Positions 5,495-64,000 of a stretch of 64,000 bases of DNA are shown here, in pieces (position 1 is the stretch's first letter; each line of letters begins with the position of its first letter). The notes beneath the pieces are model-generated. The model had not been told where the DNA came from and searched no databases. It saw only the letters and a program-made list of their open reading frames with translations. The position numbers and the translations under genes were made by a program. This DNA is from Haliotis rufescens. Taxonomy: Eukaryota. The stretch lies in NCBI RefSeq assembly GCF_023055435.1, contig NW_025964383.1, forward strand, positions 47,740,001-47,804,000, in the 5' to 3' direction.

Positions 5495-5678
5495 ATGAAC
5501 ATGGTTTCTCTCTGCCGGATTATATCGTTGTTGTGTGTCAGCGTGTGTGTGATAGCCGTTGCGCTTGCCTCGGCACCTTCTCATAGACATCAGGGAAAAG
5601 AATGTGGACGGGTTCAACGCGAGTTTTCACACAAAAAGATAGGCTCACATAATCTAGTACCCGATAACAAAGTACATG
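5495..5678 (+). CDS. GPC5: Glypican (GPC3/GPC5/Dally-like) coding exon 1: signal peptide and first conserved Cys. Start ATG at 5495 or 5501.
   Basis: Encodes MNMVSLCRIISLLCVSVCVIAVALAS (hydrophobic signal peptide) then ...KECGRVQREFSHKKIGSHNLVPDNKVH, resembling the glypican N-terminal C-x2-V-x3-F motif. Ends G|GTAAGT (phase-1 donor at 5679). The symbol is tentative: GPC3 versus GPC5 orthology cannot be resolved here. Confidence 0.85.
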
Positions 5679-6658
5679 GTAAGTATTCTGACCCCACAAC
5701 GAAATCCATGTTTTTCATTTTGAACCGCGAGACGTGCGTTCTGTTTGAGTTTCATTGCTTTTGTGAATGTTGCGATACCGAAGCCCCTTTTCTTTTTTGT
5801 TCTCACACAACATGCCGCAATACAAACGTGGAAAGGCTTGTGTTTCCTACGCACTAGATGGCCTAGATATTGCGTGATTTCAGATCATGTACGGTATTTG
5901 ACTCTACCCAGTAAGCTTTATTGTAAGAACATATTTTGTGTTTCAAATTATGAAAGAAATATCAGTCGAAATAGTAATTTTGACAGCTGAAATACCGACA
6001 TATGCTCCGAGATATGACTATATTACCTCTTTACTATGTGGATAATGATGTTATAACTAGACTAACCCAATTTTATTTGGTTACTTTCTAGTCTTTTGTG
6101 TAACACATCAAATAAAGAATTATCATTTGTGGTTAATGTGTTTCATAGAACATTGTTAAAAGTCATAGGCAGTTGAAAACAGTGTTATCCAAGCTTTGTG
6201 AAGGCATGGTGAAAATAAACAATGTCCAAATATGTGGAATAATACTAAACAATATTCATATTGATAAGGTGGATAATAACTTATAAAATGGTTATTGAAA
6301 TAAATGGTGATGTGTGACATTGTGAGCCTGGTGAATAAATATGTCCACATACACCATGTTCACAATGTTTACAACATACTTAATACAACATAATTTTACA
6401 ATTAATTTCTTGTAAGGACTTAAGTTATCCTCTGTCAGACCAACACTACACAACACACGGTTAGTCAGAAAGATAAGGTTAAGTTTATCCATAAAGTTTT
6501 TTCTCATCACAAATACTGCTTTCTTGATTCTGAAAAAACTTTTGTCCAAATGTTGTTCCAATATTTCTTCAAGCTTCCTTGTACCTAGTTCTTTGAGGTT
6601 GGGAGTAGCTTCCCCAAACAGCCAAAGTCCTTAAATTTTAACCAAAATTTGATTTCAG

Positions 6659-6835
6659 ATTCAGGTGTGTCAGTGTGTTTCAATGGTAAAGAACTTAAGC
6701 ACCACAAATCGTGCTGCACGAAAGATACAGAGGAGAAATATGTGAAGGCTGCAGAGAGATATTTAAAAGACAGTCTACGATCAACCAATGCATATTTGAA
6801 GAAGCTTGTGATGGAGAGTTTGGCTCGGTTTCAAG
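6659..6835 (+). CDS. GPC5: Glypican coding exon 2
   Basis: Acceptor tttcAG|AT in phase 1, matching exon 1. Encodes DSGVSVCFNGKELKHHKSCCTKDTEEKY...LARFQ, with the glypican 'C...SCCT..(M/T)EE(K/R)Y' motif. Donor CAAG|GTAAGA, phase 1. Confidence 0.92.
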
Positions 6836-58685: not shown

Positions 58686-59383
58686 AGAGGGTGTTGGATT
58701 TACTAGAGGAGGCCCAGAACCGGACAGCTGTGATGCTGAGCCGCGTCCACAACATCCCCTGGGACGAGCACCATGGTACGGTCAGCGACTACTTCCTGGA
58801 CATGGAACAGTACGCCCGCCGCCAGCACGTCAACCTCCAGGACTCGGTCCAGACCTTCTTCACCGAACTCTTCCCATCCGTATTCTACTACATCCTGAGC
58901 GACCCCACCGTCATCCGCTACGACGACCACTACCGCAGCTGTCTGCTGCAAGCCGAGGAGGACATCCAGCCTTTCGGCAACAGCCCCAAACATCTTGCCC
59001 ACAAAATTGTCCAAGCTTTCCAAAGAGCACGGGCATTTGTGAACGCCTTGTCTGTGATCACAGAAGCCATTAATTCCACGGATCATATCAAGTTTGATAC
59101 CAATTGTCTTGAAGCTGCAACAAAGTTGCAATACTGCTCTCATTGTCAAGGATATGTTGATGCCAAGCCTTGCCATGGCTTCTGCTTGAATGTTATTGGG
59201 GGCTGTCTGGCAACTGAGTCGGAAATAAGCCCGGCCTGGGATGATCTTATTTCTGCAGTCAGAACTCTCACCAACGGCATGAAGGAAAAATTCAGTTTGG
59301 AAGTAGTTTTAAGTGGTATTCATGAACAGATTTCAGAAGGAATACTTCAAGCAATGGACGATGGACCAAGGATTTACACTAAG
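58686..59383 (+). CDS. GPC5: Glypican coding exon 3 (698 bp, helical core)
   Basis: Polypyrimidine tract then tttttgcAG|AG, phase 1, joins exon 2 as RFQ-E-RVLDLLEEA. Contains glypican motifs FFTELFP, Y..CL......IQPFGNSPK, RAFVNAL and C.....KLQYCSHCQG....KPCHGFCLNVIGGCLA....W. Donor AAG|GTAATA, phase 0. A single ~0.7 kb third exon is the GPC3/GPC5 layout; GPC1/2/4/6 split this region. Confidence 0.95.
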
Positions 59384-59539
59384 GTAATAACCTATTGCTT
59401 GTATTTTGTAGAAATATAATGTATTAGATCTTGCTCAGGTTGAATTGGTCTGTAAGAGCCTTATTTCCCTGTGGAAGGAAGGACGTGAGCAACATAAGGA
59501 TTGAATCATCACAATGTATAACCTGGCTGGATGTATGTC

Positions 59540-59657
59540 AAAGTCCAATGATTGCAAGATTGTTGCTCATGCTATCACCCACTGGTTTGTCTGGACAACA
59601 TTTGCTATTTTCAGGCCATCATGATGTAGCTGGGATATTGCTGACTGGTGTAAAATA
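59540..59657 (+). mobile_element. Highly diverged 3' part of family A
   Basis: gattgttgctcatgctatcacccactggtttgtctggac...gtagctgggatattgctgactggtgtaaaataa. Confidence 0.45.
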
Positions 59658-61134
59658 ATGATCATGCATTACAGCTACTTCTGTGGTATCTCATATGCTT
59701 TAAGTCAGACTTGCGACACGAGGGTTAAGATCGCTTAGTGGAAAGAAGCCAGGGCTGCTAATTGGCTATAGCTGATCTCTCCACGGAATGTAGGAAGTCT
59801 TCTATTACCTAAACATTGTCGTCCAATTTAATCTTGACATTCTCCTTACTTGAATCAATAATGGCCCGATTGCATTCTCAACACCAGGAGGATATGCTAG
59901 ACCCTGACGGTTCAGTCTCGTCTGGTGCAACACTTGACAAGAATAAATTTATATCTTATGAAAAGATAGTCACTATATCATAGCCAAAGATTGTTAGCAA
60001 CAATAAGCGTTGACGTGTTACCCAGCTGTTGGAGAAGGTGAAGTGTAGAGAGCTAGTGTCCAATATCTGCTGGGGCAGCGCTCCAGTGCGGGAGCATGGT
60101 GCCAGGGTGAACAATAACTTTGTACAGGCAAATAGTTTGAACCATGTTTTCAGTTTGACTTGTGTATTAGATCTCAAACAAGAAAGAAAAATATGTCTTT
60201 GGAGGAAGCACTACTAAAAAAATCTAAATACTGGTCTGTGTGGTGAGTGATTAGCTTGATGTTAGATCCGGATCTTCTAATCTTGTTCTTTTGTTGTTAT
60301 TGTAAGATCCGTTTGTAACAATCATCATATTTCTTGCCATCAAAGGCTGGTGGTTAATTGAATCGTGTTTCATGTAAAGTCCCATGGAACAAAAACCTCC
60401 ATCTTTAACATTGGAAAAGAAACTTGAAGACCCGTTTGAACCTTACATCTGTGAACTATCTAGTCCTGCATCTCTCTATGTTAAAGAACAGCCGATCTGG
60501 AGTACAATTCTTTGTCAAGGGAGTAATAGGCTATTTAGAGGACCACCACAACAAAATAACGGACCTCCATTAATTATTATTGTCTGGATAAAAAAGTAAA
60601 TTTCCCGAATTGATCAATCTTCAAAGGCCACAGTTCAATTGAGCCACTGTTTGGGAAATGTATTCCGCCTACCTTTGAATTATTGATCAGTGATGGGGGT
60701 AATCAGTGATCATGTCAAGTCTACCGTCGCCGCGGTGCTGCCGACATCCCTGCGCCTGGACGCGGCTCACGGGACCGATTCCGCCAGAGTTAACTTCACG
60801 TTTGTAATTGCATGTTGGGTCTCTCTCATCACACTGTTGGCAATACATGGTTATGGGAGTAACTGAGTTGGGGCATCAATGATTGCAAAATATATCCGTA
60901 GATAAGGGTGAAATTGGCTCTGTAAATTTTGACGTATTTGATGAGTGTAAGTGCTTGTTGAGTCAACAATTATATGGGTGTTTTGATGGATGCTAGTTGC
61001 ACCTATGTCATTTGGGAGAAAATGAAGATGTCTTCATTGTGGAAAAGTATGATCACTATTTATGGTACAAAATTAGTTTTGAATACTATGTCTATCAGAA
61101 TCTATCAAATTTGAATGTTGTAAATATTTCACTT

Positions 61135-61479
61135 TTAAAGAGTCTTGACTATCTCTGCCTTCATAATGTCAAGAATAACTACACCTACACAATAGATAGA
61201 TAGTGCTGCACATGGAAAGACTTCTATGGATGTTGCAGTCATCAGCCCACCCAAGATGTACAATACAGTCTGTCCCTGCTTCAGAGCAGCATTCACAAGC
61301 ATTGTCCCCCAGTAATTAACCCGAAGGCATTGATTGACTTCAGTTGCGACATTCACCATCTTGTTGATGATGTTCTCAGTGCAGATGTAGTTGTTCCCGC
61401 CTACCTGTGCCTTCGTCACCTGGGTGCACTGACAGACAGAAATAGACATCATCAATATCCCTGCTATCAGAAAGTCCAT
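61135..61479 (-). CDS. Candidate nested intronless gene: 114-aa putative secreted protein, antisense in glypican intron 3
   Basis: Non-repetitive ORF starting AGCATGG (A at -3, G at +4). MDFLIAGILMMSISVCQC is signal-peptide-like, followed by a mature region with 4 Cys and predicted amphipathic helices. TATTTATAAG lies ~35-45 bp upstream. No homolog recognised. Confidence 0.45.
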   Translation of the reverse strand: MDFLIAGILMMSISVCQCTQVTKAQVGGNNYICTENIINKMVNVATEVNQCLRVNYWGTMLVNAALKQGQTVLYILGGLMTATSIEVFPCAALSIYCVGVVILDIMKAEIVKTL

Positions 61480-61715
61480 GCTAGCAACAGGAGGCTGTAC
61501 CTGGTCGTCCAGCTTATAAATAACACATGTTATTGGTGATTTGGCCATCGACTGTAACATGAGACATTCATCGGGTTTCCATGAAAACTACGAGTGCCTG
61601 ACTTGGCCTGGGATATGATTGCCTGACTTGTCATGATTACAATGACTGGAAGTCACAGAGGATGGTTGTCTTGTCATCTCATTGAGTGACCTGTGTGAAA
61701 GATGATGTTTGAAGT

Positions 61716-62578
61716 TGTGTCAGCTCTGTCTGAAACATGTGACAGTGTTTAAAACATGTGTCTGTGTCTGCTCTGTCTGAAACATGTGACAGTGTTTGAA
61801 ACATGTGTCTGTGTCTGCAGTGTTTGAAACATGTGGCTGTGTCTGCTCTGTCTGAAACATGTGACAGTGTTTGAAGCATGTGTCTGTGTCTGCAGTGACT
61901 GAAACATGTGACAGTGTTTGAAACATGTGTCTGTGTCTGCAGTGACTGAAACATGTGGCTGTGTCTGAAACATGTGGCTGTGTCAGCAGTGTCTGAAACA
62001 TGGCTATGTCTGCAGAGTCTGAAAAATGTGGCTGTGTCTGCTATGTCTGAAACATGTGTCTGTGTCTGCAGTGTCTGAAAAATGTGGCTGTGTCAGTGTT
62101 TGAAACATGTTGGTGTGTCTGAAACATATGACCGTGTCAGCAGTGTCTGAAACATGTGGCTGTGTCAGCAGTGTCTGAAACATGTGTCTGTGTCTGAAAC
62201 ATATGGCTGTGTCAGCAGTGTATGAAACATCTGGCTGTGTCTGCAGTGTCTGAAACATGTGTCTGTGTTTGCAATGTCTGAAAAATGTGCCTGTGTCTGA
62301 AACATATGGCTGTGTCTGCAGTGTCTGAAACATGTGGCCATGTCTGCAGTGTCTGAAACATGTGTCCGTGTTAGCAGTGTCTGAAACATGTGGCTGTGTC
62401 AGCAGTGTCTGAAACATGTGTCTGTGTCTGAAACATGTCTGTGTCAGTAGTGTCTTAAAAATGTGTCTATGTTTGAAACATATTGCTGTGTCAGCAGTGT
62501 CTGAAATATGTGGCTGTGTCTGCAGTGTCTGAAAAATGTGGCTGTGTCCGCAGTGTCTGAAACATGTGGCCGTGAAAC
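61716..62578. repeat. Degenerate ~16-28-bp satellite (gtgtctgaaacatgtggctgtgtctgca)
   Basis: Repeated TGAAACATGTG cores with variable spacers. Confidence 0.88.
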
Positions 62579-63841
62579 GTATGAACGACAAAATTTGATG
62601 CTGATACATTTTCCCCAAGACCGTTTTCTTGAACTGACGTAAACACTGACAGACTACTGCCACATTCCTGGGGAAACCCCTGGGAATTACCAAACACGAA
62701 TACATACAAAATCATTGTTTCTGATCATTTGGACCTTTTAATCTTGAACTCAGCATTTGTATTCTACTTTGGCGACAGGATATAATTCTCGTCGCAATAA
62801 TCAAGCACAAATTGCTATCTAAATCCCAGTTGGAATTAAACATTAAAAAACCCTCGTAATTATTTCATATTTTTGCATAACTTCAAACAGATATAAGATG
62901 ATGTGGAGCCAGTGGAAAACAAGATAGAATGGCATCTGCCCACACACCCCTATCATACACGCCATTGATGAAAGGACTTAAATAGCAATTACTGTTCCAT
63001 TTAACAGTTTTCTCGTCATTATTGCCAGAAATACAACATTTCTCATAAGACAGACTCCGTTTGCACTGGGCCTTGTCCATCATACATACTGTTGGATGGA
63101 TAGACCTGGTCTGTACATATTCACGGAAATAGTTTTGCAGAAACTCAATTGAGGAACTATCTCTTAAACTTGCTGACAGCCTGTGCTGTGTTGTGTGCGG
63201 TGTTGTGTGCCAGCAGTTACTTCAGTGGAACGGAGCCACTTGGAAGGCCACGTGTTAGGTTGGGGTACGCCAGGGTTATCACTCACTGCAGTAAATATTT
63301 TCATTAAGTACACACTTACATAAAACATGTGACTTTTTTAACCGAGTTCCTATGTAAATAGTATCTGATAGAAATAGAGGGTACGACCCTGTCGTATGTC
63401 TATTGCTTGTCGTCCTGATTGAAACCTTCTACGCGGCCACGCGGCCAGCATGGTGCTCCATGTTCATACACATCTCCATGTTAATTGAAACTGACTCAAT
63501 TCTTGCCGTGCTGAACTGTCTCAATCAGGGAACAAATTGTTGGGCTTTCCTGTAAATACGAATTAAATAAATCATGGATTTGAATAAACTACTCTGTCCT
63601 GTCTGAATCTAATAAAGTGTGTGGTATCTAAATTGTAATTTGAAAGTTGGTAGAAATGTGGGGGAACTTATGGTCGATATCCCAGATGTCTGTAATGTAC
63701 GTGCATTGAAGATGTCAGCAGCTGGTGGATTGCAGTCACAGGACTTCCTGTAGTACGTGCAATAAAACATATATCGAAAGTCACACCACTTATAGTATAT
63801 ATGCTCTGTGTTCTAAAGTAGAGATGTGACGTTAAATATTA

Positions 63842-63872
63842 ACTCACTCACTCACTCACTCACTCACTCACT
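63842..63872. repeat. (ACTC)n microsatellite
   Basis: Seen directly. It is the same motif as the family B and C SINE tails. Confidence 0.85.
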
Positions 63873-64000
63873 AAAGTAAAGATGAAATTCAAGTGTTCCT
63901 TTATACAGTCCTATTGGTAATAGTTGTGTTGGACCCCCTGAAATTCATATAAAGTATCTGTATCCATGAAACATCAAAATTCCCCTTTGCAACTACTGAT

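Follow-up and report, generated by a model that had tools for sequence, protein, structure and literature searches.

Does an open reading frame (ORF) lying antisense in an intron of a glypican gene from red abalone, Haliotis rufescens, belong to a working gene? A sequence-only reading of the 64,000-nucleotide stretch of DNA analysed here (the window) had proposed at this place a nested gene for a small secreted protein of no recognised family. The ORF is a real sequence feature and is probably not a working gene. On balance, and with modest confidence, we favour the view that it is what is left of a coding sequence after a recent loss of constraint. The features on which the discussion bears are collected in Table 1.

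Table 1. Features of the locus, in positions of the window
Feature	Position	Strand	Basis or remark
Glypican-5-like coding exon 3 (host gene, control exon)	58686..59383	+	PF01153, P0003 mapping
Glypican intron 3	59384..64000	+	ends past the window; exon 4 at window-equivalent 64201
114-codon orphan ORF and stop codon	61135..61479	-	ORF, periodicity, variation in relatives
Hydrophobic N-terminus, codons 1-18, signal-peptide-like	61426..61479	-	predicted, hydropathy only
Open in-frame extension, ATGs at 61560 and 61548	61480..61587	-	no codon periodicity (chi2 3.8)
TATA-like motif TATTTATAAG, putative	61513..61522	-	motif only
Weaker periodic tail past the stop, same register	60883..61134	.	6 stops on minus, 1 on plus
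In-register antisense frame, 218 codons, 2 internal stops	60883..61539	+	12/15 substitutions non-synonymous
Cryptic 5' splice site TTG/GTGATT	61533..61541	+	joined to exon 4 in one X16 contig (organism C)

The open reading frame and its glypican host

The exon lying upstream of the ORF matches PF01153 (E 2e-60) and is 100% identical to the glypican-5-like protein of H. rufescens (P0003), the mapping of which places coding exons at window positions 5495-5677, 6658-6834 and 58686-59383, with exon 4 just past the window. The ORF lies, as first described, antisense within coding intron 3 of this gene (59384-64200). In other respects, the same intron holds a short, very high-copy interspersed repeat at 59557-59650 (hundreds of partial contig matches in 4 runs, no Rfam match) and a CpG-rich patch at 60600-60800, where the observed/expected ratio reaches 1.0 against 0-0.8 elsewhere in the intron, and which may be a regulatory site free of methylation or else an insertion of recent date. 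Far away on the same contig (G000:C605, 16.88-16.89 Mb) there is another glypican gene (25-43% identity). About 25-31 kb upstream of the window lie ankyrin-repeat-like exons, named by eye from their translations, between which an apparently long LINE-type element, likewise recognised by eye, is inserted on the other strand.

With regard to the ORF itself, its minus-strand coordinates and 114-residue translation were recovered as originally given, together with the AGCATGG context at the chosen ATG and the TATA-like motif, 33 nt from that codon. The frame remains open for 36 codons further upstream and the chosen ATG is the third in frame, so that an N-terminal signal peptide would need a transcript start below 61548, after the two upstream ATGs. 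The proposed secreted architecture held as far as the hydrophobic N-terminus and the four Cys after residue 18 (C33, C51, C90 and C97, plus C16 and C18 within the N-terminal part), while the putative signal peptide is judged from hydropathy, with a peak of 2.57 over 11 residues and no basic n-region. The net charge of the protein is 0 to +1, that of its mature part +1. In the red abalone assembly (G000), the ORF is single copy, matching only itself at meaningful E.

Codon periodicity and searches for relatives

The length of the ORF stands at chance level, since 2.25 ORFs of at least 114 aa are expected in the 40,255 non-repeat intron bases of the window, where others of 122 and 132 aa are found. 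The statement that it reads like real protein was nevertheless borne out by its codon periodicity (chi2 25.7), which exceeds that of all 336 simulated chance ORFs (median 6.7) and falls inside the range of glypican exon 3 (17-60). Periodicity of this level occurs in 13 of 1457 unmasked real windows of 339 nt (264 kb), several of which are glypican exons; the stop-free frames ranking near the ORF belong for the most part to glypican exons, to exons resembling those of ankyrin proteins and to ORFs of transposon-like appearance, as judged by eye from their translations. It sets in at the ATG: first-position purines stand at 0.50 immediately before it and at 0.68 in each half of the ORF. The GRAVY value of 0.79 is equalled by 0.3% of the simulated chance ORFs and the N-terminal hydrophobicity by 1.5%, and a strong start context combined with such an N-terminus was met in 1 of the 336. 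The ORF appears to derive from coding sequence, with a beginning like that of a secreted protein. We infer the coding past from composition, no parent or homologue having been found, and a large scan selects for coding-like cases of this kind.

A frame that never coded, picked out by such a scan and owing its periodicity to local composition or to a very old, decayed trinucleotide repeat, appears quite unlikely. It would account for the chance-level length and for the weak continuation of the periodicity beyond the stop (chi2 13.7 over the first 46 codons of the tail, P 0.03), but it has to face a periodicity above that of every simulated ORF and in the top 1% of real windows. A decayed triplet repeat is further opposed by the codon positions, the third being unbiased and the first and second biased, and by the tandem repeat search, which called none at the ORF. 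As to which strand would have coded, the host codon-position matrix scores the two in-register frames alike (13.7 and 16.4 bits) and does not distinguish them.

Searches for relatives of the protein returned very little, and the lack of a homologue, a family and a confident fold also agrees with a chance ORF. Among 5.8 billion proteins, the only match to the 114- or 141-residue protein (one match among two candidates) was P0002, from a Logan contig; it was also the single match among 1.84 billion representatives, a set in which relatives more than 50% identical to P0002 would be masked. P0002 agrees throughout the 27 upstream residues, shows 8 differences in the 76 that follow and has its last residue at 105, and its eight changes are the same as those seen in organism C, one of the relatives considered below. 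Searches of Pfam, NCBIfam and PDB with the ORF protein were blank, that of the ESM Atlas gave no usable match, and viral, metagenome and prokaryote contigs held no confirmed relative. A phage search returned a single record (E 0.2). The match to phrog_8585 (E 0.0013, 41 residues) was judged to be due to chance, its E being 1.26 at genome scale, and a suspected likeness between the central part of the protein and short-chain dehydrogenases found no Pfam or PDB support.

Reading the six frames of 59700-61715 through stops yielded no Pfam family, the Rfam search was blank at the locus, and no terminal repeats of note surround the ORF. No credible match to a transposon or virus, which would have told against a gene, appeared in the mobile, viral and prokaryotic searches, nor does the ORF exist in several copies. 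The AlphaFold2 model from the single sequence is unusable (pLDDT 37, all 114 residues below 50) and suggests helices only. In the literature, no title on glypican in Haliotis concerned this locus and none was found on positively selected secreted orphan genes of abalone; supplementary tables of testis or shell proteomes could contain the protein.

Variation in related organisms

Variation was read from 7 of the 24 listed sequencing runs, which represent the red abalone (A) and its relatives B, C and D. The frame is intact in the two red abalone haplotypes examined over the ORF, that of the window and that of run X12, the latter carrying 2 non-synonymous differences, both common to B and C. It is also intact in organism B (X13, depth 8.4), where all 6 substitutions are non-synonymous, while organism C (X16, depth 13.2) shows at least 12 substitutions in codons 1-114, 11 of them non-synonymous (16 of 17 differences listed). 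Taken together, X13 and X16 provide, among the differences listed, 15 distinct substitutions in a ratio of 14 non-synonymous to 1 synonymous, distributed 5/4/6 over the codon positions.

With a neutral non-synonymous share of 0.77, the 14:1 ratio is compatible with neutrality (P 0.22), whereas an omega of 0.3 (P 0.0005) or 0.5 (P 0.009) is rejected; the point estimate is 4.1, with a 95% interval of 0.63-175. The substitution pattern is neutral in all six frames, as would also be expected of a chance ORF. In the control, glypican exon 3, the corresponding ratio is 7:10 over B, C and D (hand count), which differs from that of the ORF (Fisher P 0.003), the control being weaker with B and C alone (5:4). 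The ORF is not conserved as a protein: purifying selection is excluded, and neutrality and diversifying selection are both allowed, the latter fitting at least as well as the former by the omega estimate and its interval. A dN/dS not below 1 in relatives goes against the proposal of a working gene.

Relative to organism B, the ORF has changed at 6 of 345 positions and the intron pieces at 34 of 2070 (P 0.82); relative to organism C, the figures are 13/345 and 24-26/1220 (P 0.07-0.11). When the non-synonymous sites alone are compared with the intron in organism C, their rate is about twice as high (11/264 vs 24-26/1220, P 0.04-0.08). Organisms B and C both keep all four Cys of the mature part, an outcome expected by chance about half the time.

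The glypican exons themselves display some variation of interest. In exon 3 (58733-59383), B, C and D have in common 6 differences from the red abalone, 5 of which are non-synonymous, and two of the six also occur in another red abalone run. The start of exon 4 is a local hot spot of change in glypican-5-like: its first 32 bases contain 7 differences between red abalone and organism C, against 6 in the 702 of exon 3, with at least 4 amino-acid changes in 10 codons and a shifted N-glycosylation sequon.

Further evidence against the proposal of a working gene comes from the orthologous site of relatives, where frameshifts and the loss of the stop are seen. In X16, one base is lost at 61225, so that the frame is left after codon 84 and ends at 97 aa; X15, also from organism C, does not have this loss, which makes the break either polymorphic or an assembly error. 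In both of these runs, the stop of the ORF is changed to a sense codon. The end of P0002 fits exactly a one-base loss at codon 77, a contig end being also possible. Organism C would in this way carry two different frameshift alleles in addition to the lost stop. In organism D (X18, codons 1-32 only), a 4-base insertion falls in codon 17, a difference that may be an error at the depth of 2.1, and the ATG at 61560 is lost. Among the close relatives, the frame is kept in B, and is broken or deprived of its stop in C and, at low depth, in D. By computation, a neutral ORF of this size would stay intact with a probability of 0.4-0.5 at 1.7% divergence, 0.13-0.23 at 3.8% and at most 0.02 at 10%. The observed pattern of intact and broken frames matches this neutral survival, which implies that any loss of constraint was recent.

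The same data can be read in favour of a live, lineage-restricted nested gene for a fast-evolving secreted protein that was lost in organisms C and D, a rather unlikely reading to our mind. The TATA-like motif would then drive transcription in a narrow range of tissues, and the product would be a secreted helical protein of 96 residues with two possible disulfides, under diversifying selection in a gamete or defence role. Periodicity starting at the ATG, the strong context, the motif upstream and the hydrophobic N-terminus would all be explained, as would the frame kept in A and B with exclusively non-synonymous changes between them, the omega estimate, the elevated dN towards C and, for what a chance of about one half is worth, the constant Cys. 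Abalone sperm proteins are known to evolve in this way (PMC9022041, PMC6952181). However, the overall rate towards B is that of the intron, and the majority of the changes set organism C, with its broken frame, apart from A and B. V48D, G78W and N30Y are among the substitutions. A canonical poly(A) signal is also absent, no AATAAA being present downstream of the ORF on the minus strand within the intron, where only CATAAA at 61064 and ATTAAA at 59832 occur. The protein collection, which contains the NCBI glypican of the host locus, has no NCBI protein for the ORF, and the sole stranded RNA evidence, described in the next section, is from the plus strand. The more specific version, a helical secreted protein of a new family, alive and diversifying in the red abalone and its nearest relative and independently knocked out in other abalones, which would make it a candidate for a species-specific protein of gametes or defence in the course of turnover, we hold to be unlikely.

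Transcription of the intron and comparison with known systems

Contigs of X15, X18 and X24 fit glypican exon 3 up to its border, and that of X15 continues into exon 4, which indicates that these runs contain spliced mRNA. X15 also yields short contigs at several intron places, both within the ORF and elsewhere. The borders of the ORF do not interrupt the RNA-like contigs, which cover other intron pieces as well, and three contigs pass the TATA-like motif unbroken. The splice acceptor that had been proposed as an alternative to this motif is not borne out, being crossed unspliced by all three RNA-like contigs that cover it. Among the sequencing runs, no RNA run was listed as containing the ORF, and X24, an RNA-like run of red abalone, covers exon 3 and not the ORF; neither result carries weight on expression. 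These contigs are unstranded and give no level, so that they could hide minus-strand reads. Over the ORF, the strand can be told for one RNA only, which is spliced to glypican exon 4 on the plus strand and is antisense to the ORF. An X16 contig departs from the window at 61535-61540, and its letters from there on are those found after exon 3 in the X15 mRNA, namely exon 4; the joint is GT-AG on the plus strand, with five letters fitting both sides. It could possibly be a template switch, which would also come from plus-strand RNA. Upstream of the donor, every plus frame of the piece is interrupted by stops, and the frame leading into exon 4 is open for 4 codons, so that the cryptically spliced product is likely non-coding. 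The contig, of 1200 nt, joins the donor at 61535 to G000:C605:47804201 and includes another 645 letters upstream of 61010; a poison exon, a longer form of exon 3 and an alternative first exon are all candidate identities for the piece.

This donor also bears on the possibility that the plus-strand frame was the coding one, as a dead alternative exon or an inserted fragment, the minus-strand ORF being its antisense shadow. Nearly open from one end of the periodic stretch to the other (P 1e-4 per start place), that frame ends at a used donor and is scored like the ORF by the host matrix. We consider it very improbable, given that the donor is in phase 2 for that frame and the start of exon 4 in phase 0, that the frame running into exon 4 is open for only 4 codons, and that the stretch has no likeness to glypican exon 3, of which it is not a duplicate. 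Protein, family, phage and contig searches found no homologue of it either. Amino-acid composition favours the minus frame (0.02 vs -0.15 bits per residue), a weak score that also favoured the antisense frame of the glypican exon.

On the favoured reading of a relic, the coding sequence was probably that of a gene with one exon, the small helical product of which was secreted. Shortly before the split of these species, constraint may have ended or the piece may have come in from a donor that is not sampled, since few neutral ORFs of this size would last through 10% divergence. The ORF would now drift at the intron's rate inside glypican intron 3, and the shortness of the time elapsed would be the only reason why red abalone and its nearest relative still have an intact frame. 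It would be transcribed passively, antisense, as part of the glypican pre-mRNA, and the RNA over it would consist of this pre-mRNA and a cryptically spliced by-product, without an mRNA of its own. As a relic, the ORF is ordinary, one more decaying intronic orphan coding sequence, and serves mainly to illustrate that codon periodicity, a hydrophobic N-terminus and a convincing start context can persist once function is gone. A live gene would bring a previously unknown secreted protein of fast evolution into a genus that models gamete-protein evolution, and the natural loss alleles of the relatives would serve as test material.

Among known systems, lysin and sp18 of abalone are mainly helical. 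They and their paralogues are described (PMC9022041, PMC6952181) as small, signal-peptide-bearing, fast-evolving proteins with an excess of non-synonymous change; lysin-type genes have five exons and lie in a cluster, lysin and sp18 are strongly basic (+12 for lysin, +22 for sp18), and the paralogues are free of premature stops. The ORF is like them in size, hydrophobic N-terminus and excess of amino-acid change, but it has one exon, a net charge close to zero, no Pfam match and broken alleles. Membership of this group was rejected on the blank Pfam and PDB searches and on an exon structure and charge that do not fit.

De novo proto-genes likewise have no homologue outside very close relatives, are intronic and antisense and have a frame polymorphic among relatives, as does the ORF; its coding-type periodicity would be unexpected in newly born sequence, and its transcript is only putative. 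Cryptic or poison exons offer a parallel to the donor at 61535, through which a piece of intron that meets stops in every frame is joined to glypican exon 4, with the difference that this joint is known from a single contig in a single run. Decaying orphan genes and unitary pseudogenes share with the ORF the single copy, the coding-type composition, a dN/dS not below 1 and different disabling changes in related lineages. Here, neutral evolution is accompanied by disabling changes in the relatives and not in the red abalone genome, where the frame is still intact. The ORF also differs from unitary pseudogenes in that no functional orthologue or parent was found: its own genome has no paralogue, and P0002 is the one orthologue in the protein collections.
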